41,693 nt of DNA from a virus: the IMG/VR virus record IMGVR_UViG_3300045988_117511; one strand, given 5' to 3'. Every line of letters begins with the position of its first letter. Position 1 is the stretch's first letter. Below, piece after piece: positions 4,598-18,555 of this stretch. A model generated the notes under the pieces. The model ran no database searches. It was not told the origin of the DNA and saw nothing but the letters and a program-made list of their open reading frames with translations. The position numbers were made by a program, and so were the translations under genes.

Positions 4598-4806
4598 AAC
4601 GCTTCTCCTTCCATCACTCCCTCTACCGGGATATGTCTCTGTTCCATCACCAGTTCACTGATCCGGTAATAATCCTCATCGTCTTTCGTCTGCACCAGTG
4701 CCCACTTGTCATCCACGGCGCTTCGCAGCTCTTTTACTCTTCCCAGCTCTCCGAAATTCGGATTGCCGATCTTTATGATTTTTACTAAATCTCCTACGTA
4801 CAGCAT
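4594..4806 (-). CDS. Hypothetical protein (70 aa)
   Basis: Start moved to the ATG at 4806, which has AAAGGAG 7 nt upstream. The track ORF starts at a GTG (4827). Confidence 0.55.
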   Translation of the reverse strand: MLYVGDLVKIIKIGNPNFGELGRVKELRSAVDDKWALVQTKDDEDYYRISELVMEQRHIPVEGVMEGEAL

Positions 4807-4830
4807 TGCTTTTCTCCTTTGATTCACCTT

Positions 4831-5235
4831 TCACTCATCCTCCAAGGACTCCATCACGATATAGATCCCCGGGACCTTTGCCCAAAATTTTTCAATATGC
4901 TCGGATGCCACCTGAGCATCGTTTTTGAAAAATCCCAGATCCTCCATCACGTCTTTCAGCATCTTCTCCAGGTTATCCGTATCTGGCTTTGTCGCTTTAT
5001 ACTCACCGTCTCTATGCCGGCCGCGAATCGGAAAGCACCACTTCACCCCGAGCCACACGGGACCAGTAAATCTTTTTTTGGGAACATGCTTTGCCAGATG
5101 TGCCCGTAATTTTTCTCTTGCCTGTTTCAATTCGGCCGGTTCATACACGACCGGTTTTCCATTTCGAATCGTGATGGATTTTTCCTGCTGCGTAATCGTT
5201 GGCGGCAGCATCGCCATAAAAAATTCAAATCTCAC
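4831..5235 (-). CDS. rusA: RusA-family Holliday junction resolvase
   Basis: The sequence LPPTITQQEK...KPDTDNLEKMLKDVMEDLGFFKNDAQV resembles RusA. The start is GTG with a GAGGT RBS. Confidence 0.75.
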   Translation of the reverse strand: MRFEFFMAMLPPTITQQEKSITIRNGKPVVYEPAELKQAREKLRAHLAKHVPKKRFTGPVWLGVKWCFPIRGRHRDGEYKATKPDTDNLEKMLKDVMEDLGFFKNDAQVASEHIEKFWAKVPGIYIVMESLEDE

Positions 5236-5575: not shown

Positions 5576-7779
5576 TATTTTTTACCAACAACTCCATCAT
5601 CGATCCAGAATCCTCCATGCTCTTTCAAGCGATTTCTTACAGTTTTTTCCGTCACTCCCATATATTCCGACAGTGCTCCGAGGGTAACTTTGCCATCAAT
5701 ACTGCATGCTCCATATGCCATTTCCACCGATTCTTTTTTCTCTTTTTTGCGATCTTCCGGCGTCTTTTTCTTCTTAAAATTTCGTTTCCAGCTCACCTGA
5801 TCGCCGTCCGGCTGAACGTCCTGAAGGACTCCGCTCTGATCTAAAGAATGAGCCGGATAATCAAACCACAGATTCACTGGAGCAAACTTCGGAAACTCTC
5901 TGAGCGTCCCCTCGATCCGCCACGCGGTGAGGCTCTCTGCTCGCTTCTCAGCCATTCTTACAGCGGCTTCCGCCTCCCGTGCCTGTATGCCCTCTAAATG
6001 GCTGTCGCAGGCTTTTTTCATCTGCACAGCGCTGCACATATCATCCTGGGACACATGATCTTCCCAGCTGTCCGAATACTTATCCAGCGTATCGATACAC
6101 GCCCTACAGGAAAACTCGTTCTTTTTCTGCGTAAGAAGCTCCTCGCCGATCTCAAGCTCGATCAGATCCAGCAGAGCATCTGGGTCCCTTGCGAATACCC
6201 CGGAGCCCGATGCACGGTCCATGGAGCGCTTCTGCCCCTGGCCGCCCTTGCTGTGATGGTGGCAGTAGATCACCGCTGCGCCCAGGTCACTGCATACGAT
6301 ATCGAACTGGTTGCAGAAATGTGCCATCTGATCGGCACTGTTTTCATCTCCGGTGATAACCTTATAGATCGGATCGATAATGATCGCGATGTAGTCTTTC
6401 TTGGCCGCCCGGCGAATAAGCTTTGGCGCCAGCCTGTCCATGGGCACGCTCTTTCCTCTCAGATTCCAAATATCGATATTATTAAGGTTTGCCGGCTTGA
6501 TGTGCATGCTCTCATACACGTCCTTGAAACGATGCAGACAGCTCGCTCTGTCCAGCTCCAGATTAACGTACATCACCTTGCCTTTTGCACAATTCCACTG
6601 CAGCCACTTCTTACCCTCTGCGATCGCTATGCAAAGTTCGATAAGCGCATAGGACTTTCCGGCCTTCGACGGACCTGCAAGCAGCATTTTATGCCCCTGC
6701 CGAAGCACGCCGTCAATGAGCGGCGGTGAAAGTGCCGGCAGATCATCCCAGATATCAAGGAGACTCTCTGGATCCGGAAGATCGTCATTGACGCTTTCGA
6801 TCCATTTTCTCCATTCCTCCCAGGACTCTTTTCCGATATTAGTCTCTACGAGAAACTGCTTTCTGCCGTTTCGAATGATTCCCGGCATCCGGGAAAGCCT
6901 CGAAGGATTCCTGTTCTGGCTGTCTATTTTCAGCCCGTTTTTTCTGCAGACCTCATAAAGATAATCAACGCGCTTTCTGTACTCCTCGTAGCTTCTGGCA
7001 TCCACCTTTACGATGGCATGCAGGCTTTTCTTACCGCTGTAGACAAGGCACGCAACTGGAAGATCCAGCTCTCTGATGATGGCGTTCTGCTCTTCGATCT
7101 CCATATTGTCGGACTCGACCAGGGCAAAGCGGTAATCAGTGACATTCTCATTTTTCACGCCGCGACCATCCAGCGGATTGAACCGGATCCATGCACCGGC
7201 AGCTTCCTTATAGTCGCCGATCACTACTTCTATGTCATTCTTATTTTTCCCCAGAAGTTCGATCAGCTCGCCAGCTGTCCGGTCATATGCTCCCTTGCTC
7301 GGAAGATACTTTCCGTCCTTTTCCCAGCAGCTGGTCACATATCCGACGTTTTCATCGCTATTAAAAAGCGTTTCCAGATATTTGATCAGTTCCCCTGCAG
7401 GATCCCAGTCAGCGCCCGGCTCATGGATTTCTTTTCCTTCCAGCCATTCTTTTTCGACAACGACCAGCTCATCCTTGGTGCTGATCTCGGCGTCCCAGTC
7501 AAGCTCCATCCCCGGATCCGGCTTCCAGCCTCTATCCTTTGCCATCTGCACGATAGTGCCGGCAGTAACCCTGGTTCCGGCCATCCCATGGAAGCTGTCC
7601 CATTTTTTCTGACACTCTCCATTATGGTAGCGTTCCCGGTCAGCTCTGCTCCAGCTGTCCCAGTCAGCTGCCGTATAACCGTCTTCTTTTAGACCCATTC
7701 CTACCGCAAGCCATTCCTCATAAGAAAGATCTCTAGGGTCTATATATTGAATTAAATCTACCAGGCTATATTTTTCCAT
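5575..7779 (-). CDS. Primase-polymerase / RepA-like (AAA_25) helicase fusion with C-terminal HTH
   Basis: The N-terminal region is PriCT-like (LSYEEWLAVGMGLKEDGY). The central part looks like a prim-pol. A Walker A motif is present (LLAGPSKAGKSYAL). The C-terminal tail LSEYMGVTEKTVRNRLKEHG is an HTH. Confidence 0.8.
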   Translation of the reverse strand: MEKYSLVDLIQYIDPRDLSYEEWLAVGMGLKEDGYTAADWDSWSRADRERYHNGECQKKWDSFHGMAGTRVTAGTIVQMAKDRGWKPDPGMELDWDAEISTKDELVVVEKEWLEGKEIHEPGADWDPAGELIKYLETLFNSDENVGYVTSCWEKDGKYLPSKGAYDRTAGELIELLGKNKNDIEVVIGDYKEAAGAWIRFNPLDGRGVKNENVTDYRFALVESDNMEIEEQNAIIRELDLPVACLVYSGKKSLHAIVKVDARSYEEYRKRVDYLYEVCRKNGLKIDSQNRNPSRLSRMPGIIRNGRKQFLVETNIGKESWEEWRKWIESVNDDLPDPESLLDIWDDLPALSPPLIDGVLRQGHKMLLAGPSKAGKSYALIELCIAIAEGKKWLQWNCAKGKVMYVNLELDRASCLHRFKDVYESMHIKPANLNNIDIWNLRGKSVPMDRLAPKLIRRAAKKDYIAIIIDPIYKVITGDENSADQMAHFCNQFDIVCSDLGAAVIYCHHHSKGGQGQKRSMDRASGSGVFARDPDALLDLIELEIGEELLTQKKNEFSCRACIDTLDKYSDSWEDHVSQDDMCSAVQMKKACDSHLEGIQAREAEAAVRMAEKRAESLTAWRIEGTLREFPKFAPVNLWFDYPAHSLDQSGVLQDVQPDGDQVSWKRNFKKKKTPEDRKKEKKESVEMAYGACSIDGKVTLGALSEYMGVTEKTVRNRLKEHGGFWIDDGVVGKK

Positions 7780-9386
7780 GCCGTTTCTCCTTCAGTTTTT
7801 GGCGGTATATAAGTGTGTGGATCAATGGAGTTTGGAACTCTCCAGCCGTTTCCTGCGATCCGGTCGATCAGATGCTTAGCTGCAGTAAATTCCCACGTCC
7901 CAACATGCTGAAAGCCTCTTCCTTCCAGGAAGCGGATCTGCTTTGGCGTCGTAAGTCCTGCTTTTTTTCTGGCATCGAGCCTGTTAAGAAGCTTTGACGC
8001 CTTCCCTGCATTATCGATCTCATCCGGATAGATTCCGAGTTTTTCTAAGGCTTTTGTCTGCTTTTCAGATGGCGGCGCCATCTCCCAGCCAAAAGCCGGC
8101 ACGTACCCGGACAGATCTTCTGCCTGGATGCTCATCTCAAACTGCAATGGATCTACAAGTTTTCTTTTGCGGGTCCTCATCTGCTGCAGCTGCTTAGCCA
8201 GTGATTCTTCACGCTGCGCTACTACATCTTCTGCAGCCTGCGCTTCTGCCTCTTCGATATCTACAGGCGCCGGTGCATCCTTGATGTTTTCAGTCATCTG
8301 CTTTGCTACTTCTTCATTTTCACAGATCAGGTGTGCCGGATGACAAAGTTCATGCCGCTCGGTATGCCACAGAAAATCCAGAAGCAGAAGCTCTGTTTTT
8401 CCGGTCTGCGGGGAAAGACGTGTACCGCGTCCTACCATCTGGCAGTAAAGACTACGCACCTTTGTCGGCCGGAGCACCACCACACAATCTACGGATGGAC
8501 AGTCCCAGCCTTCCGTAAGTAGCATGCTGTTACAGAGGACGTTGTATTTTCCATCATCAAAATCCTGCAGCACCTGCGCCCGATCCATGCTCTCGCCATT
8601 TACCTCCGCAGCAGCAAAGCCTGCTTTATTGAGCATCTCACAGAACTTCTGGCTTGTTTTGATCAGCGGCAGGAACACGACAGTCTTTCGATCATGACAA
8701 ACTTTTCCCATCTCTTCTGCAATTTGCTCCAGATATGGATCTAAGGCAGTGCTGATATCGCCTGCCTTAAAGTCTCCCGCCTGCATACTTACCGAAGATA
8801 GATCTAGCTTTAACGGTATCGTCTGCGCTTTGATCGGACAAAGATATCCTTCCTTGATCGCCTTTGGCAGCGTGTATTCATATGCCAGACTCTCAAAATA
8901 GCTTCCAAGGTTCTTCATATCACCCCGATCCGGCGTTGCCGTCACGCCCAGGACCTTTGCCCCGGAGAAATGCGAAAGCACTTTCTGATAGCTGTCTGAG
9001 ATGCAGTGGTGCGCTTCATCCACGATGATCGTATCGAAGTAATCCGGATCAAACTGCTTTAAGCGCTTTTCTCTCATGAGAGTCTGCACAGATCCGACCG
9101 TTACCCGAAACCAGCTGCCAATGCAGGTCTGTTCCGCTTTTTCGGTGGAACAGTGAAGTCCGGTCGCCGACGCCAGCTTATCTGCAGCCTGATCCAGAAG
9201 CTCACCCCGGTGAGCAAGAATAAGCGCCCTGCCGCCGGCTCTCACCCGATCTTCTACGATCTTAGAGAAAACGATCGTCTTACCAGTCCCCGTTGGAAGC
9301 ACCAGCAAAGTGCGATCGATATCTTCCCATTGCTCATGAACAGCCTGCCTTGCTTCCTGCTGGTACGGTCTCATTTCCATAGCCAT
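7758..9386 (-). CDS. SF2 DEAD/DEAH-box helicase
   Basis: Helicase motifs are present: LPTGTGKT (motif I), VDEAHH (motif II), TATP (motif III) and a later QMVGRGTR. Confidence 0.85.
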   Translation of the reverse strand: MAMEMRPYQQEARQAVHEQWEDIDRTLLVLPTGTGKTIVFSKIVEDRVRAGGRALILAHRGELLDQAADKLASATGLHCSTEKAEQTCIGSWFRVTVGSVQTLMREKRLKQFDPDYFDTIIVDEAHHCISDSYQKVLSHFSGAKVLGVTATPDRGDMKNLGSYFESLAYEYTLPKAIKEGYLCPIKAQTIPLKLDLSSVSMQAGDFKAGDISTALDPYLEQIAEEMGKVCHDRKTVVFLPLIKTSQKFCEMLNKAGFAAAEVNGESMDRAQVLQDFDDGKYNVLCNSMLLTEGWDCPSVDCVVVLRPTKVRSLYCQMVGRGTRLSPQTGKTELLLLDFLWHTERHELCHPAHLICENEEVAKQMTENIKDAPAPVDIEEAEAQAAEDVVAQREESLAKQLQQMRTRKRKLVDPLQFEMSIQAEDLSGYVPAFGWEMAPPSEKQTKALEKLGIYPDEIDNAGKASKLLNRLDARKKAGLTTPKQIRFLEGRGFQHVGTWEFTAAKHLIDRIAGNGWRVPNSIDPHTYIPPKTEGETAWKNIAW

Positions 9387-13159: not shown

Positions 13160-13251
13160 AACGACTCTCCTTTCTTTATCCCGCATATGGTTCTGGGCGC
13201 TTCTCCATAGGCTTCCATCTTGTTAATCGTTTCATTTGACACCTCACTTTC

Positions 13252-13303: not shown

Positions 13304-13978
13304 GTGAAAACTAGAAAAAGAACATTTTTTGCGGGCAGCTCTACCTTGGAATTCGAATCCGAACTTCCACTAGAATGTCCCCATTGCGGAGCATATGGTG
13401 TGCCAGACATTGTCACATCAACTCATGTGGTCTACGGATCTAGCGTTTACCACATACTGATATTGGAACATAGCTGCTGTGATAAAATATCTCAGGCCAT
13501 TTACCGTGTTAATGATGGATCCGGCGAATTACTTTCATTGTTACCGCAAATTATAAAGCGAGGTGATTTCCCAGATTCCATAAAGAAAATCTCGCCACAT
13601 TTTATCGAACTTTACAATCAATGCTATGAAGCTGAACAACGTGGTTTCCTTGAACTTGCCGGATCTGGATATCGTAATGCTCTTGAAGTTCTAATTAAGG
13701 ACTATGCAATTTCTGTACTACACGAGCCTGAAAAAGAAGTAATCAGCTGTTCACTTTCAAAAGCAATCCAAAAATATCTTTCCGAGGTCAAGTTATCTCA
13801 ATCAGCCGATGTGGTTCGTATTCTGGGTAATGATCACACTCACTACGAACGCAAATACGATGACATTGACTTCCAGATCCTAAAAAAATATCTGAAAATC
13901 TTTGTTGACAGCATTGACTGTGAATATTTGATCCGAAACCCTATAGTAAAGACCAATCCTAACCTTCCTCAGGAATAA
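13304..13978 (+). CDS. Zinc-ribbon + DUF4145 domain protein (antisense moron in the early operon)
   Basis: GTG start. N-terminal CPHCG...HSCCD. The C-terminal pattern FIELYNQCYEAEQRGFLELAGSGYRNALEVLIKDYA...ADVVRILGNDHTHY matches DUF4145 from memory. Confidence 0.7.
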   Translation: MKTRKRTFFAGSSTLEFESELPLECPHCGAYGVPDIVTSTHVVYGSSVYHILILEHSCCDKISQAIYRVNDGSGELLSLLPQIIKRGDFPDSIKKISPHFIELYNQCYEAEQRGFLELAGSGYRNALEVLIKDYAISVLHEPEKEVISCSLSKAIQKYLSEVKLSQSADVVRILGNDHTHYERKYDDIDFQILKKYLKIFVDSIDCEYLIRNPIVKTNPNLPQE

Positions 13979-14147: not shown

Positions 14148-14179
14148 CTCCTCTCCTTCAAACTTTCAAAAGTTGGCTA

Positions 14180-14410
14180 CTACTCATTGGATTGCTCAAA
14201 GAGGTTCTCATTTTGAAACTGCTCAAACAGATAGTCCAGAGAACAGTTAGGAAAATAGTTCTTCTTTATTTCCACCATTTCTTTTCTAGTAAATTCAGTT
14301 CTGCAGTAAATCTTGTTCGAAATGGACCTCTCATCTTTTTCTATAAGCTTTGCTAAATCTTTTTGCGAAATACCTGCACGAGCCATTTCTGCTATTAGGT
14401 TTTTTAACAT
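14180..14410 (-). CDS. Cro-like XRE-family HTH regulator
   Basis: ARAGISQKDLAKLIEKDERSISNKI is an HTH. The RBS is AGGAGGTG. It is the first gene of the minus-strand early operon and is divergent from the repressor. Confidence 0.8.
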   Translation of the reverse strand: MLKNLIAEMARAGISQKDLAKLIEKDERSISNKIYCRTEFTRKEMVEIKKNYFPNCSLDYLFEQFQNENLFEQSNE

Positions 14411-14591
14411 CGGCCACCTCCTTTCTACCCCACAGGGTAACTATGTTTTTAATATATACCCCACAAGGTAATTTGTCAACGGTATTTTTACCCTGCGCCA
14501 TAACTTTTTTCGTTCTGTAGTAAATAAATTACTTTACAACGGAAATATTTTGCGGTAGAATAGCCGTAACATATAGAAAGAGGTTTACGGT
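14411..14591. promoter_or_regulatory. Lysis-lysogeny switch region with back-to-back promoters and operators
   Basis: Minus strand carries TTGACA (14479-14474), 17 nt spacer, TATATT (14456-14451). Plus strand carries TTTACA (14533-14538), 17 nt spacer, TAGAAT (14556-14561). The 14-mer TACCCCAC(A/G)(G/A)GGTA occurs at 14426-14439 and 14457-14470, and the second copy fills the early-promoter spacer. A half-site lies at 14489-14497. Confidence 0.7.
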
Positions 14592-14912
14592 ATGAGTTTT
14601 CTTACAAAATTAGATAAACTAATGAAAGATAGAAATATAAACAAGAATCAATTATCAAAAGAATCTGGAGTTCCTTACACTACTATAGATGGTTTCTATA
14701 AGAAAGGAACTGATAATATTAAATTATCTACATTAAAAAAACTGGCAGCTTATTTTGAATGTTCTTTGGACTACCTTGCAGATGATGACGTTCCAGACGA
14801 TTCCATCAACACCATCGCAGCCCACCACGACGGTGAGGACTGGACAGAGGAAGAGCTGGATGAGATTGAGACTTTTAAAAAGTTCGTACTTTCCAAGAGG
14901 GATGAAAAATAA
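14592..14912 (+). CDS. CI-like XRE-family repressor
   Basis: LDKLMKDRNINKNQLSKESGVPYTTIDGFYKKGTDNIKLSTLKKLAAYFECSLDYL is an HTH_3 domain. It is the first gene of the plus-strand lysogeny operon. Confidence 0.85.
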   Translation: MSFLTKLDKLMKDRNINKNQLSKESGVPYTTIDGFYKKGTDNIKLSTLKKLAAYFECSLDYLADDDVPDDSINTIAAHHDGEDWTEEELDEIETFKKFVLSKRDEK

Positions 14913-14945
14913 TTACCTTTGTGGGAAAAATCTTTCCGTAAAGTA

Positions 14946-14974
14946 TTGCAACTTACAGAATAATTTCATATAAT
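14946..14974 (+). promoter_or_regulatory. Near-consensus sigma-A promoter of the type III TA-like locus
   Basis: TTGCAA (14946-14951), 17 nt spacer, TATAAT (14969-14974). Confidence 0.65.
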
Positions 14975-15013
14975 GAGGGTACATTAAGATTGTCGTTTGA
15001 GAGCAGAACGACC

Positions 15014-15115
15014 TAAATCTAAAGACGGCTCAATGGATGATTCTCCTTGTAGAGCGCAAGGAGCTTAAATAAAAGAAAGCTCAATGGATGTACCCTCTGC
15101 ATATTGCGGAGGGTA
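15014..15115 (+). repeat. Two tandem ~51-52-nt units (GCTCAATGGATG at 15028 and 15079)
   Basis: The exact 12-mer occurs twice with a 51-nt period. The flanking TAAAT and AAAGA are also conserved. The hairpins are CTCCTTG/CAAGGAG (15043-15063) and TACCCTCTGC/GCGGAGGGTA (15091-15115). Confidence 0.7.
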
Positions 15116-15122
15116 TTTTTTT
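15091..15122 (+). terminator. Rho-independent terminator between the repeat RNA and the toxin gene
   Basis: A 10-bp stem (one G-U pair), loop ATATT, then T7. It lies 12 nt upstream of the ATG at 15134. Confidence 0.75.
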
Positions 15123-15133
15123 AGGAGAAAACA

Positions 15134-15547
15134 ATGAAATTAAAAATACTTTCCAGAAAATTCTATAGTACATATTCTGATTGCAAAGAAATTTTGAAAA
15201 AATCAGAGAGACCTTATGCCTGTCTGACTATTGAAGTAAACAGTACCCTGTTCGCAATTCCATTCCGGCATCATATACGACATAAATATGCGTTTTTCAC
15301 AATTGGAGAAGCTGGGCTTGACTATACAAAAGCAGTCGTGATTTCTGATACCAGTTACTTGGCTCCAGATGAACCTACTATCGAAAGTAAGGAGTTCGCG
15401 ATCATAAAAAAAGAAGAGCAACAGATAATATATGGCTTTAAAAAATACGTAAATCAGTATATAAAAGCCATGAAGCATAGAGATATACCTAGAAATGCTA
15501 ACATTTTAAAATACAGCGCATTACAATACTTTGAAGAATATCTGTAA
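15134..15547 (+). CDS. Type III toxin-antitoxin toxin-like protein (ToxN/AbiQ/CptN/TenpN superfamily endoribonuclease candidate)
   Basis: 137 aa. MKLKILSRKFYSTY...SERPYACLTIEVNSTLFAIPFRHHIRH...GLDYTKAVVI resembles type III toxins from memory. The locus architecture (promoter, repeats, terminator, ORF) is the type III hallmark. Confidence 0.55.
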   Translation: MKLKILSRKFYSTYSDCKEILKKSERPYACLTIEVNSTLFAIPFRHHIRHKYAFFTIGEAGLDYTKAVVISDTSYLAPDEPTIESKEFAIIKKEEQQIIYGFKKYVNQYIKAMKHRDIPRNANILKYSALQYFEEYL

Positions 15548-15558
15548 GAGGTGACACC

Positions 15559-15942
15559 ATGACGAAACATGAGAAACTCATGGCTGAATATGAAGATTTG
15601 TATATCGAAGAACGACAGATGATAAACGATGGTCTGTACGCTGACGGATGCATCTGGATCAATCAGAAGCTGCCTTCCTGCAAAAAGTTCTCCGTCCTGG
15701 CAGAAGAGATCGGACATCACAAGACCAGTGCCGGCAATATCCTCGATCAGGATGACACCGCAAACCGAAAGCAGGAACTGACTGCCCGCAAATGGGCTTA
15801 TGAAAAAATCGTTCCGGTAGATAAAATCGTCGCTGCCATCGACTCTGGCTATGATGAGGTGTGGAGCTTGGCAGAACAATTCGACGTAGATGAAGACTTT
15901 ATGCGAGAAGCTTTAAAGCATTATGGGATTTTAGATATATAG
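15559..15942 (+). CDS. ImmA/IrrE (M78, DUF955)-like protein with variant EExxH motif
   Basis: IWINQKLPSCKKFSVLAEEIGHHKTS...ANRKQELTARKWAYEKIVP aligns to the ImmA pattern I.IN...F.LAHELGH...E..A..FA.E.L.P. A Glu replaces the first His. Confidence 0.65.
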   Translation: MTKHEKLMAEYEDLYIEERQMINDGLYADGCIWINQKLPSCKKFSVLAEEIGHHKTSAGNILDQDDTANRKQELTARKWAYEKIVPVDKIVAAIDSGYDEVWSLAEQFDVDEDFMREALKHYGILDI

Positions 15943-16011
15943 TCGGATTGATGTACTTAATTTCGATATCTTATTAAAAAAACAAACAGAATATTTTTAA
16001 GGAGCGTTGCT

Positions 16012-16512
16012 ATGATAACGGTAGAAGATGTTTTAAAAAGTAAAAAAAAGATAGCTAAAAAGCGTAAACCTGATTATACTGAAGATAAACAACACTATCG
16101 TATGAATATTGATCTCGTATGCGAGGATTTAGATGTGAAACTAACAATGTTCATCCGGAAATTGAAAAAATCGCCCGACACAGACTTCAGTATAGGTATG
16201 CGTGTTAATGGACCTAGTTTCTTTTCAAACAACACCATTGTCCTTGTGCGTTTCCAAGGCCCTCATGGTGGTCAATCTCAGACCAAAAATCTTAATGACC
16301 TGCACAACAATTATCACATACACCTCTACACTGAAGATGACCGAATCCATCATCGCAAACATGCAAATTATAAAGGTGTTGGTGATTTCAATAGCTTTGA
16401 GCAAGCTATTGCTGCCTTTTTAAATTATTGCCATATAGATGATCCCCATGGCATTTTTGATGATGAGATAGCAATGGCGGAACAATTTAAAATGAATTTA
16501 GAGAATCTTTAG
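16012..16512 (+). CDS. Orphan protein (166 aa), basic N-terminus and His-rich core
   Basis: RBS TAAGGAG. Contains KKKIAKKRKP and HNNYHIHLYTEDDRIHHRKH. I cannot assign a family. The gene is AT-rich. Confidence 0.7.
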   Translation: MITVEDVLKSKKKIAKKRKPDYTEDKQHYRMNIDLVCEDLDVKLTMFIRKLKKSPDTDFSIGMRVNGPSFFSNNTIVLVRFQGPHGGQSQTKNLNDLHNNYHIHLYTEDDRIHHRKHANYKGVGDFNSFEQAIAAFLNYCHIDDPHGIFDDEIAMAEQFKMNLENL

Positions 16513-16521
16513 GAGGTCAAT

Positions 16522-17274
16522 ATGGACATTAACGCCCTACTACTAAATACCCCTGGTACATTATTTCGTACGAAAGAGGCTACTGATGGCACATACCAAT
16601 TAATTGCGCCACTATTTCATGAAGATGGCGATATGATGAGTATTTATTTAAAAGAAAATGATTCGGGGAATATAGAAATCTTTGATAATGGGATGAGCCT
16701 TATGCGTCTTTCTTATACTTTTGACATTGATACAGATAATAAAGAGCGCATTTTAAACGATATCATCCTTGCTAAAAACGCCGAAAATTATGACGGAAAT
16801 ATTATAATGACCGTAACGCCAGAGCAAATATATACCGGCATCATGACTTACTCTCAACTGATCAACCAAGTATGCGGACTCGATATTCTTTCCCGAGAAG
16901 CTGTGACCGATTTGTTTTATGAAAATTTAAGCACCGCTATCGAAACCACGCTTTCTGGAAAGATATATGATAAGGATGTAACCCTCCCTCAATATAAAGA
17001 TATGAAAATAGATTACATCTTTAAAGGCAAAGAGAAGCCTTTGTATCTTTTTGGAATCAAAGATACAAACAAAGCGCAGCAAACCACTATATGCTGTCTA
17101 CAACTAGAACAAAGATCTATTCCATTTAAGAGTGTTGCCGTATTCAATAATATTGATACCGGAATAACTAAATTCGCACGAAATACATTGATGAATACTG
17201 TAGGCAAAGTATTCACTGATTTAGATGGATTTGCAGAGTATGGCAAAAATTATTTAGAAAATGAAATAGCTTAA
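16522..17274 (+). CDS. DUF1828/DUF1829-like two-domain protein
   Basis: RBS TAGGAGG. It starts 9 nt after the upstream stop. The N-terminal pattern YQLIAPLFHEDGDMMSIYLKENDSGNIEIFDNGMSLMRL resembles DUF1828. The family call is from memory. Confidence 0.65.
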   Translation: MDINALLLNTPGTLFRTKEATDGTYQLIAPLFHEDGDMMSIYLKENDSGNIEIFDNGMSLMRLSYTFDIDTDNKERILNDIILAKNAENYDGNIIMTVTPEQIYTGIMTYSQLINQVCGLDILSREAVTDLFYENLSTAIETTLSGKIYDKDVTLPQYKDMKIDYIFKGKEKPLYLFGIKDTNKAQQTTICCLQLEQRSIPFKSVAVFNNIDTGITKFARNTLMNTVGKVFTDLDGFAEYGKNYLENEIA

Positions 17275-17418
17275 AAAACAAAACCCCCTGCGCTAACAGA
17301 GGGTCCGTCCATGAGCTGTAATGATACAGTCCATACAATGCAATCTGATTGTATCATTTCAGCCCGGATTTGTCAAAGCCGGGTATTTTTATGCCCATTT
17401 TTAAGGAGATGATACATA

Positions 17419-18555
17419 ATGGCAACCAAGAAGAACACTGCGGTCCTCCGTGGTGACAAGGAATACAACTACTTCCGGATCACCCGAACCGTTGGTCATG
17501 AGTGGAAAGACGGCAAGAGAATCCCGATCAAGAAGCAGTTCTATGGTACCAGCAAGGGAGATGCGGAAAAACAGTTCCGTGCTTACCAGGAAGAGCAGCT
17601 GCAGAAAAAATATGAAAAAGAGCATGCTGCAGCTGAAGCCCAACGGAAGACCTTTGGAGAATACGCAGAAGAATATACCTACGAAGTCTTCATGAACAGC
17701 ACTTATGCCAAAGGGACCAAGCGCCGATATGAACAAAGCTACCGGGTTCATGTGAAAGATTCCTGGATCACTTCTATACCGATCGGCGAAGTGGACGCGA
17801 AAACTCTGCAGGACTTCTATATATGGCTGCCTGTATCGAAACAAAACTTGGATTCCATCAATAAGTGGATGTCTGCATTTTATAAATGGCTTGCCCTGAA
17901 TAATATTTCCGGGAATATCCTGAGTGCAGTCACCATGCCTGAGAAATATGACAACAAGAAAAAGGATGAGATCATAGTATGGGAGCCAGACGAGATCCAG
18001 ACCATTCTCACAAGCTCTGATGGCCACAGGCTGCGTTTCATGATGTTTCTGATGAATTATACCGGTCTTCGTATATCCGAATGTCTGGGGCTTAAATACA
18101 GCGACATCAGATCTGGATTCGTATGTGTGGATCGCCAATACTACCAGGGTGAAATCGTCCCTCCAAAACATAATTCCTACAGGAAGATTCCGGTTCACCC
18201 GGAGCTGGAGAAGGCGCTGCAGATCCATAAAGAACGATTCGAAGCTGAAGCCAGGCGCAACAATTACAAAACAGAATTTGTATTCACCAGCGATTCCGGA
18301 AAGCTCCTGGAGTATGGCAATACACGCAGATCATTGAACAGATATTATGCCGATATCAATGTTCCACAGAAGAGCCCTCACACCTACCGGGCCACATTCT
18401 GCACCGAGCTGTGCCGGGCAGGCGTGCCACTGGAAGTCGCATCTAAGCTCATGGGACACAAATCTATCGAGGTCACGGCCAAGCACTACGCCCTGGTAAA
18501 GCAAGATGTACAGATTGCAGCCATAAATCGGCTTCCCGGCATAGACGTGAAATAA
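17419..18555 (+). CDS. int: Tyrosine recombinase (phage integrase)
   Basis: The C-terminal catalytic region is LRISECLGL...HTYRATFCTELCRAGVPLEVASKLMGHKSIEVTAKHY (R..HxxR..Y). It is adjacent to attP. Confidence 0.92.
   Translation: MATKKNTAVLRGDKEYNYFRITRTVGHEWKDGKRIPIKKQFYGTSKGDAEKQFRAYQEEQLQKKYEKEHAAAEAQRKTFGEYAEEYTYEVFMNSTYAKGTKRRYEQSYRVHVKDSWITSIPIGEVDAKTLQDFYIWLPVSKQNLDSINKWMSAFYKWLALNNISGNILSAVTMPEKYDNKKKDEIIVWEPDEIQTILTSSDGHRLRFMMFLMNYTGLRISECLGLKYSDIRSGFVCVDRQYYQGEIVPPKHNSYRKIPVHPELEKALQIHKERFEAEARRNNYKTEFVFTSDSGKLLEYGNTRRSLNRYYADINVPQKSPHTYRATFCTELCRAGVPLEVASKLMGHKSIEVTAKHYALVKQDVQIAAINRLPGIDVK

Follow-up and report, generated by a model that had tools for sequence, protein, structure and literature searches.

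What does a pair of small genes placed between the immunity region and the integrase do for a temperate phage? Such a pair, here called A and B, lies on the plus strand of the viral record IMGVR_UViG_3300045988_117511 from IMG/VR, a stretch of 41,693 nt that we refer to in its entirety as the window. An initial annotation, drawn up without database searches, proposed that A and B are an undescribed anti-phage system located in a superinfection-exclusion slot. We report that homologues of the two genes occur together across phyla, that near-identical phages carry other genes, including Abi genes, in their place, and that the pair resembles a catalogued defence candidate. Our favoured reading, to which we assign a probability of roughly 0.55, is that A and B constitute an intracellular two-component defence against phages (or other mobile elements), with B as a nuclease-type effector and A as a sensor or regulator.

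Organization of the gene pair

Gene A is a plus-strand open reading frame (ORF) of 166 aa at positions 16012 to 16512, and gene B a plus-strand ORF of 250 aa at 16522 to 17274. Reading the sequence directly places a Shine-Dalgarno element AGGAG for A at 16000 to 16004 (plus strand), 7 nt ahead of its ATG. Only 9 nt separate the two genes, and the TAG stop codon of A at 16510 to 16512 opens a TAGGAGG motif (16510 to 16516, plus strand) that ends 5 nt ahead of the ATG of B. This overlap between the stop codon of A and the Shine-Dalgarno element of B indicates translational coupling. The two ORFs, the 9-nt gap, the TAGGAGG ribosome-binding site and the structured tail that follows B all have the coordinates and motifs first given for them. 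The peptides first picked out are also located in the translations, with KKKIAKKRKP starting at residue 11 of A, HNNYHIHLYTEDDRIHHRKH at residue 98 of A, KIDYIF at residue 162 of B and LYLFGIKD at residue 174 of B. With hundreds of homologues across phyla, both ORFs are real genes.

The pair was originally placed in one operon with the phage repressor, expressed in the lysogen. A promoter and terminator scan found no consensus promoter ahead of A and no terminator between A and the ImmA gene upstream of it, so read-through from the promoter of the repressor, or from that of tenpI, is plausible. Given the shared strand and these absent signals, co-transcription with the repressor and expression of A and B in the lysogen are both plausible.

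A and B form a co-inherited cassette

In order to assess linkage, we examined 80 B-family loci from reference genomes representing at least 10 phyla, 4 of which are cut by contig ends, leaving 76 that are informative. In 66 of the 76, B is immediately preceded by an A-family ORF that shares its strand; a displaced fragment is found in one, and no such ORF in nine. Starting from A instead, B was located immediately downstream in all four IMG/VR contigs and in all three A-first look-ups. The reading frames overlap by 4 nt in 34 of 62 pairs, and across the same 62 pairs the distances between A proteins are closely matched by those between B proteins (Mantel r 0.913, compared with a permutation maximum of 0.28). 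The upstream linkage, the 4-nt overlap and the Mantel correlation together indicate that A and B are one co-inherited, translationally coupled cassette, which the sequence comparisons further suggest is autonomous and horizontally mobile. The expectation that the two genes travel as a pair is therefore borne out.

Seven loci contain a full-length B with no adjacent A, although a copy of A may reside elsewhere in those genomes, and every conserved residue of B is kept in all seven. At an eighth locus (L088), an A remnant truncated to 67 aa (4634 to 4837) sits beside an intact B, with P4 cII-like and RES-domain genes nearby, and this B also keeps all of the conserved residues. Another locus (L061) has two tandem copies of B, at 6623 to 7243 and 7950 to 8714, without A. 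In two Terriglobia/Bryobacterales metagenome-assembled genomes (L015 and L036), a 149-aa ORF at 7501 to 7950 overlaps B by 4 nt; as a relative of A it was rejected, with an hhalign probability of 0.2%.

Copies of B that lack A bear directly on whether the pair is a toxin-antitoxin (TA) or addiction module, in which B would act as a nuclease toxin and A as the antitoxin protein, and whose main purpose would be to stabilize a prophage or genomic island and not to counter phages. The arrangement of two small genes with the smaller upstream and a 4-nt overlap, the mobile and patchily distributed nature of the cassette, the predicted nuclease-like fold of B and the presence of TA modules around the pair (tenpIN in the window, HicAB in prophage L094 and ParE in L108) would all suit such a module. 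However, the intact conserved residues of B in the seven loci without an adjacent A and in L088 argue against A as an essential antitoxin, and A itself has neither DNA-binding nor disordered antitoxin-like features but an invariant, catalytic-looking Arg/His site. We therefore consider an addiction module unlikely, while noting that a TA module may also serve in defence.

The pair occupies a variable cargo slot

Four IMG/VR phages (L099, L100, L101 and L105) are colinear with the window phage on both flanks of the locus at 93 to 98% nucleotide identity. The left edge of the shared flank differs among these sister phages and falls at 13176, 13300 or 14166, whereas on the right the blastn alignment of every one of the four resumes at 17340, about 65 nt past the stop codon of B and within the loop of a 12-bp inverted repeat (17320 to 17358). 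Between these edges lies a low-GC immunity and cargo module on the plus strand (14167 to 17339 by blastn colinearity) that consists of the repressor (Rep), tenpIN, ImmA, A and B. The integrases of the sister phages are 98 to 99% identical to that of the window phage, yet Rep, TenpN, ImmA, A and B are all missing. The immunity and cargo module is thus swapped in one piece, and its right edge is constant.

What replaces the module differs from phage to phage. L099 has another repressor and, in the position of A and B, Abi_2 (E 3e-27). L105 has another repressor as well, and Abi_alpha (E 1.5e-48) at the position equivalent to 13304 to 13978 of the window. The remaining type of replacement among the sister phages comprises another repressor, a TPR protein and KilA-N. 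In more distant relatives of the integrase, the slot holds a MazF-like gene, or HSDR_N and NYN nuclease genes. A and B are therefore swappable accessory cargo in a hot-spot flanked by the immunity genes and the integrase, in agreement with the integrase-proximal cargo position first proposed from gene order: near-identical phages fill the slot with Abi genes and more distant ones with toxin-type genes. The variability of the slot and its defence-type neighbours, in the window tenpIN and a DUF4145/PD-T7-4-like gene, favour a defence role for A and B, as do the methylase-based operons in which relatives from other phyla sit. Beyond the pair itself, a cargo hot-spot with such sharp boundaries in a family of gut Clostridia phages could be mined for further defence genes, and the near-identical phages with and without the cassette constitute a natural allelic series.

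The pair was originally described as markedly AT-rich, and at 0.354 its GC content is indeed in the lowest 2.2% of same-size windows, compared with 0.47 in the flanks and a mean of 0.464 for the window; individual 60-nt lines range from 0.27 to 0.47. Low GC is common to most of the swapped module and is not peculiar to A (0.359) and B (0.349), as Rep (0.346) and TenpN (0.331) have it too. ImmA (0.451) and the integrase (0.474) share the composition of the phage, whereas Rep, TenpN, A and B, all between 0.33 and 0.36, do not.

The pair in other phages and genomes

The same slot is occupied by the pair in other prophages that have differing repressors and integrases of both classes. The gene order is helix-turn-helix (HTH) protein, M78 protease, A, B and serine recombinase in L001; HTH protein, A, B and tyrosine integrase in L092 and L093; and HTH protein, ParE, M78 protease, A and B in L108. 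In prophage L094 (1490 to 7452), whose B is 78% identical to that of the window, four accessory modules are stacked between repressor and recombinase, in the order S24 repressor, SNIPE/T5orf172 nuclease, HicA, HicB, A, B and serine recombinase. A megablast search of the window locus against INPHARED phages gave no match. More distant homologues are nevertheless carried by three cultured temperate phages of Pseudomonas aeruginosa, 5371, 5399 and phita81A, in which a 172-aa relative of A (hhalign probability 99%) overlaps by 4 nt a relative of B with 29% identity, all annotated as "hypothetical protein". In each of them, as in phage 5371 (L114, PQ758388.1, 3254 to 5702), the order is cI, an 84-aa protein, A and B. 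These three phages, with their homologous pair that follows cI, offer a tractable experimental system.

In non-phage genomes, the pair adjoins DNA methylases more often than any other type of gene. Co-oriented arrangements include ResIII, A, B and methylase in L063; a DUF499 ATPase, one further gene, A, B and methylase in L073; A, B and methylase in L037; and methylase, A and B in L055, the methylases in all four being N6_N4_Mtase genes. Relatives near restriction-modification (RM) genes, together with the phage-borne location of the pair in the window, could point to a counter-defence function, with A and B acting as an anti-restriction or anti-immune pair against host systems. However, the two genes share the strand of the lysogeny genes and are not grouped with the early lytic ones, many loci of the family are outside phages, and the chromosomal relatives are co-oriented inside bacterial methylase-based defence operons. 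We regard counter-defence as highly improbable.

The same neighbourhoods raise the possibility that A and B are an accessory or housekeeping factor, for instance in repair, processing or regulation, that assists mobile elements or DNA-modification systems in their DNA transactions and has no immune role. On this view, the placement beside integrases and methylases would follow from that activity. The pair adjoins integrases of two classes and methylase or helicase genes, and its conserved acidic and His-rich sites have an unassigned chemistry that could serve such a purpose. Nevertheless, the pair is dispensable, given that near-identical phages with the same integrase carry Abi genes instead, and elsewhere its integrase is an unrelated one or is lacking, or its neighbours are unrelated housekeeping genes. 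This variety of integrases and neighbours indicates that the pair is not tied to one recombinase or methylase, and an accessory role of this type is very doubtful.

Protein A is a divergent relative of DUF6978

The initial annotation could assign A to no family. We find that A matches Pfam DUF6978 (PF22398) with an E value of 1.3e-4 and 22.7 bits over profile positions 6 to 133 of 133, missing the gathering threshold of 29.6 bits, and that 37 of 57 A relatives match the same family at E <= 0.01, the best at 2e-10. A weak match to the PADLOC hidden Markov model (HMM) PDC-M24A (E 0.0074, 14.6 bits) is nearly full length, and 19 of the 57 relatives match this profile, the best with an E value of 3.7e-9. 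These profile matches identify A as a divergent DUF6978/PDC-M24A relative and not an orphan. According to an exhaustive profile search, the A family has about 1173 representative clusters, and the best 150 all stand alone, at about 160 aa each, none being a fusion. The family alignment of the 62 pairs reveals near-invariant residues at K12, R49, R80, G83-x-H85, H98, H102 and H104. Two features had been remarked upon at the outset, a basic N-terminus and a histidine cluster. The former is present as KKKIAKKRKP; conservation in the latter is limited to H98, H102 and H104, and its RIHHRKH part is not conserved.

The AlphaFold model of A is confident, with a predicted local distance difference test (pLDDT) score of 90 and a predicted template modelling (pTM) score of 0.85, and a structure search with it against the PDB found nothing analogous (best E 0.7). 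The single match among viral models is an uncharacterized siphovirus protein. Pfam searches of A and its relatives gave no HTH or ribbon-helix-helix match, and PDB sequence-profile searches of the A and B families returned nothing significant. The conserved Arg/His pocket is probably metal- or phosphate-binding. Because the predicted fold is confident and lacks a solved analogue, and the Arg/His pocket is invariant, the chemistry of A could be new. Two other interpretations of A were tried and rejected. A weak PDB sequence match to the SH2 domain of NCK1/2 (E 0.06) suggested an SH2-like phosphotyrosine-binding protein, but the confident model shows no SH2 match. HNH, HIT and histidine-phosphatase (RHG) readings of the His motifs were discarded, since conservation does not extend to the Asn and hydrophobic positions and there is no fold match.

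The maximum Kyte-Doolittle mean over 19 residues is 0.69 for A and 0.81 for B, neither protein has a hydrophobic segment, and both are predicted to be soluble and acidic to neutral. An integrase-proximal slot expressed in the lysogen is typical of superinfection-exclusion genes in Gram-positive phages, and the position of A and B would fit classical exclusion at the envelope, where adsorption or DNA injection is blocked. However, two soluble proteins make membrane-level exclusion unlikely, and the predicted nuclease-like fold of B is a further point against it. We find envelope exclusion hardly credible, and the pair is better detached from that part of the first description of the slot.

Protein B combines DUF1828 with a predicted nuclease-like domain

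B matches the PDC-M24B HMM with E values of 7.6e-11 and 2.5e-10 over about residues 17 to 144 (profile positions 21 to 147 of 255), and all 48 of its relatives match the same profile, the best at 1.5e-18. It also matches phrog_5059 (E 1.4e-24). The predicted model (pLDDT 83.8) has two domains joined by a low-confidence linker at residues 122 to 126. The N-terminal domain is DUF1828 (PF08861; residues 30 to 116, window positions 16609 to 16869, plus strand), which is detected at an E value of 8.8e-14 and, with 52 bits, exceeds the gathering score of 22; it is matched by 48 of 48 relatives. Invariant in this domain across the 62 independent pairs are H33-E-D-G-D37, D55, R62, Y65 and K74, and residues 1 to 120 are strongly acidic, with a net charge of -11. 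In the model, strands at residues 16-19, 24-28, 41-45 and 51-54 are followed by helices at 58-66 and 72-84, strands at 87-90 and 93-98 and a helix at 100-118.

B was at first read as DUF1828 followed by DUF1829. The former assignment holds and the latter does not: a search for DUF1829 (PF08862) in B and its 48 relatives gave no match at E <= 0.1, and the precomputed Pfam annotation of B homologues lists PF08861 and never DUF1829. Instead, the C-terminal domain (residues ~125 to 250, window positions 16894 to 17271, plus strand) is predicted from the model and Foldseek to have a PD-(D/E)xK-nuclease-like fold. Its elements in the model, a helix at residues 125-143, strands at 149-155, 158-167 and 174-179, a helix at 182-197 and a strand at 203-208, make up an alpha-beta-beta-beta-alpha-beta core. 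The top PDB matches of B in Foldseek are Can2, Cdn1, Card1, VC1899, R2 RLE, Hjc and T7 endonuclease I, all of which are PD-(D/E)xK nucleases. Conserved residues in this domain include E134 in helix 1 (59 of 62 pairs), D164 in strand 2 (61 of 62), K180/D181 and an invariant K229. The nuclease-like pattern in the C-terminal half, initially offered as pure speculation, is thereby backed at the level of a predicted fold, with matches to PD-(D/E)xK enzymes that are marginal. The conserved residues listed here for A and B are candidate sites for mutation.

A separate structural match links the B model to PDB entry 2ph7, the protein AF2093 of Archaeoglobus fulgidus solved by structural genomics, over 209 columns (E 8e-3, probability 0.69, template modelling (TM) score about 0.22). 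Among solved structures, AF2093 may be the closest two-domain relative of DUF1828 proteins; it has no sequence-level match to the B family, and we found nothing on its function in the literature.

Comparison with known systems

The pair was thought at first to be undescribed, but the cassette has been catalogued as PDC-M24, one of 145 "phage defence candidates" in PADLOC that were identified through guilt-by-embedding (Payne et al., bioRxiv 10.1101/2024.01.29.577857). PDC-M24 (cassette FAM_00129>>FAM_00065) has a count of 153 and was discovered by the criterion that it lies within BREX, DISARM or type I RM loci (bioRxiv 10.1101/2024.01.29.577857). It has the gene order, sizes (~146 to 170 aa, then ~250 to 256 aa) and families of A and B, and some relatives of our pair are likewise embedded in methylase-based defence operons. 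The copy in the window differs in that it lies in a prophage slot between immunity genes and integrase, outside RM, BREX or DISARM loci. From the profile matches, we identify the pair as a divergent member of the catalogued candidate PDC-M24, a predicted defence cassette.

The best structural matches to B, Can2, Card1 and Cdn1 (PDB 8bao, 6xl1 and 9u49), are PD-(D/E)xK nucleases activated by cyclic oligonucleotides. Similar to the predicted layout of B, they place an N-terminal non-catalytic domain before a C-terminal PD-(D/E)xK effector that acts in immunity. However, the match is marginal (E at least 1.3e-3, TM score about 0.3, about 10% identity), the N-terminal domain of B, DUF1828, appears in the model to be built of beta-hairpins and is probably not a Rossmann-like CARF domain, and no cyclase or CRISPR genes are linked to B, whose partner is a small DUF6978 protein. 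Parallels can also be drawn with the Abi and TA "moron" cargo of prophages: A and B are allelic to Abi_2 in L099, belong to the same module as Abi_alpha in L105, lie on the lysogeny strand and are low in GC. Unlike the single-component Abi_2/AbiD-like and Abi_alpha proteins, A and B are two components, and they have no sequence or fold relation to either. Finally, DUF1829 has been tied to validated defence through DS-6B, the DUF3037 and DUF1829 component of DS-6/HipAD (DefensePredictor, PMC13092281). The only likeness to that system came through the DUF1829 assignment of B, which was not reproduced; neither B nor its 48 relatives contain DUF1829 at E <= 0.1, and A and B have no HipA-like kinase partner.

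Proposed function

In the defence reading that we favour, A and B are accessory cargo of a temperate phage that its lysogen probably expresses. The effector role would fall to B, with a C-terminal PD-(D/E)xK-like domain that cuts nucleic acid and an acidic DUF1828 domain that gates this nuclease domain. A, a putative new-fold protein with an invariant Arg/His pocket, would be its obligate partner, forming a complex with B and serving either as a sensor of infection or as a regulator or activator of B. A more ambitious version, which we put forward only tentatively, is that the previously unseen fold of A contains a four-residue His/Arg catalytic or metal site, that A is the subunit that senses infection or generates a signal and so turns B on, and that B is a new type of PD-(D/E)xK nuclease gated by a ligand or partner, with DUF1828 as the receiver. 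The two proteins would then make up a mechanistically new abortive-infection system that extends from Firmicutes prophages to Proteobacteria, Acidobacteria and Planctomycetes.

Several observations weigh against a defence role or against the part assigned to B. PDC-M24 is a bioinformatic candidate only, and in the literature searched we found no functional account of DUF6978, DUF1828 or PDC-M24, nor of the pair in the Pseudomonas phages. The window copy is divergent from it, with A matching at E 0.0074 and B aligned in its N-terminal half only. The fold matches of B are marginal, with E values from 1.3e-3 (TM score about 0.34) to 0.1, probabilities of up to 1.0 and TM scores of about 0.3 in general. 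After strand 3, B has G-x-K180-D181 in place of (D/E)xK, the acidic position being Gly, and K180 itself is replaced in 15 of 62 pairs (by Arg in 11 and Asn in 4). Expression in the lysogen is argued from strand and from the absence of signals. The pair is rare in catalogued phages, being found in four IMG/VR contigs (via the A pattern) and three INPHARED records, and a tblastn search of plasmids with B gave no match. Finally, most neighbours of the pair in non-phage genomes are unrelated housekeeping genes, and plain chromosomal contexts are also seen. If the defence role is validated, the PDC-M24 candidate would become a real defence system, and DUF6978, DUF1828 and the C-terminal domain of B would each acquire a first function.

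Other elements of the window

The gene directly upstream of A (15559 to 15942, plus strand) encodes an ImmA/IrrE-type M78 metalloprotease (Peptidase_M78 E 1.1e-6, phrog_87 E 8e-30), and that downstream of B (17419 to 18555, plus strand) a tyrosine integrase (Pfam Phage_integrase E 2.7e-24). The 144-nt spacer between B and the integrase gene is highly structured, with hairpins, T-runs and a terminator-like character (minimum free energy -41.6 kcal/mol, z = -4.2 relative to shuffles). A G+C-rich hairpin just past the B stop codon (17281 to 17306) scores as an intrinsic terminator for the minus strand, the side on which its T-run lies. RNA folding also identifies the 12-bp inverted repeat mentioned above, whose arms are AATGATACAGTC at 17320 to 17331 and GATTGTATCATT at 17347 to 17358. 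A strong promoter-like sequence on the minus strand (TTGACA-17-TACAAT with an extended TG, 11 of 12 matches, 17376 to 17348) is aimed at the end of the cargo module; its -10 element lies within the right arm of the inverted repeat, and the terminator at 17306 to 17281 follows. A minus-strand RNA of ~40 to 60 nt is predicted that would start at the mosaic breakpoint 17340, although this arrangement may be due to chance.

The repressor of the module is a Cro/C1-type HTH protein (14592 to 14912, plus strand; Pfam HTH_26 E 7e-13). Facing it is a 76-aa Cro-like HTH protein on the minus strand (14180 to 14410), and divergent promoter-like sites occur in the region at 14479 to 14451 (minus strand, 11 of 12 matches) and 14533 to 14561 (plus strand, 10 of 12), an arrangement that is probably the genetic switch.

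Between the repressor and ImmA, the window contains a complete type III TA system, tenpIN (14946 to 15547). A promoter-like TTGCAA-17-TATAAT (14946 to 14974) precedes two tandem 51-nt repeats (14988 to 15038 and 15039 to 15089), an intrinsic terminator (15090 to 15116) and the TenpIN toxin ORF (15134 to 15547, plus strand; NCBIfam NF047358 E 2.8e-41). Tandem Repeats Finder reported nothing upstream of the toxin gene, but a repeat search and Rfam did find the repeats, the second of which matches the Rfam RF02925 "6A RNA" with 47.8 bits against a gathering score of 41.2. The motif listed by Rfam as "6A" may thus be a TenpI-type antitoxin RNA. Given that Rep and ImmA are contiguous in L104, tenpIN looks like an insertion.

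Upstream of the switch, on the lysogeny strand, is a gene for a DUF4145-like protein of 224 aa (13304 to 13978, plus strand), which matches phrog_1305 (E 9e-34) and PADLOC PD-T7-4 (E 7e-5). Since the Abi_alpha gene of L105 is found at the position of this gene, it probably marks a second slot for defence cargo.

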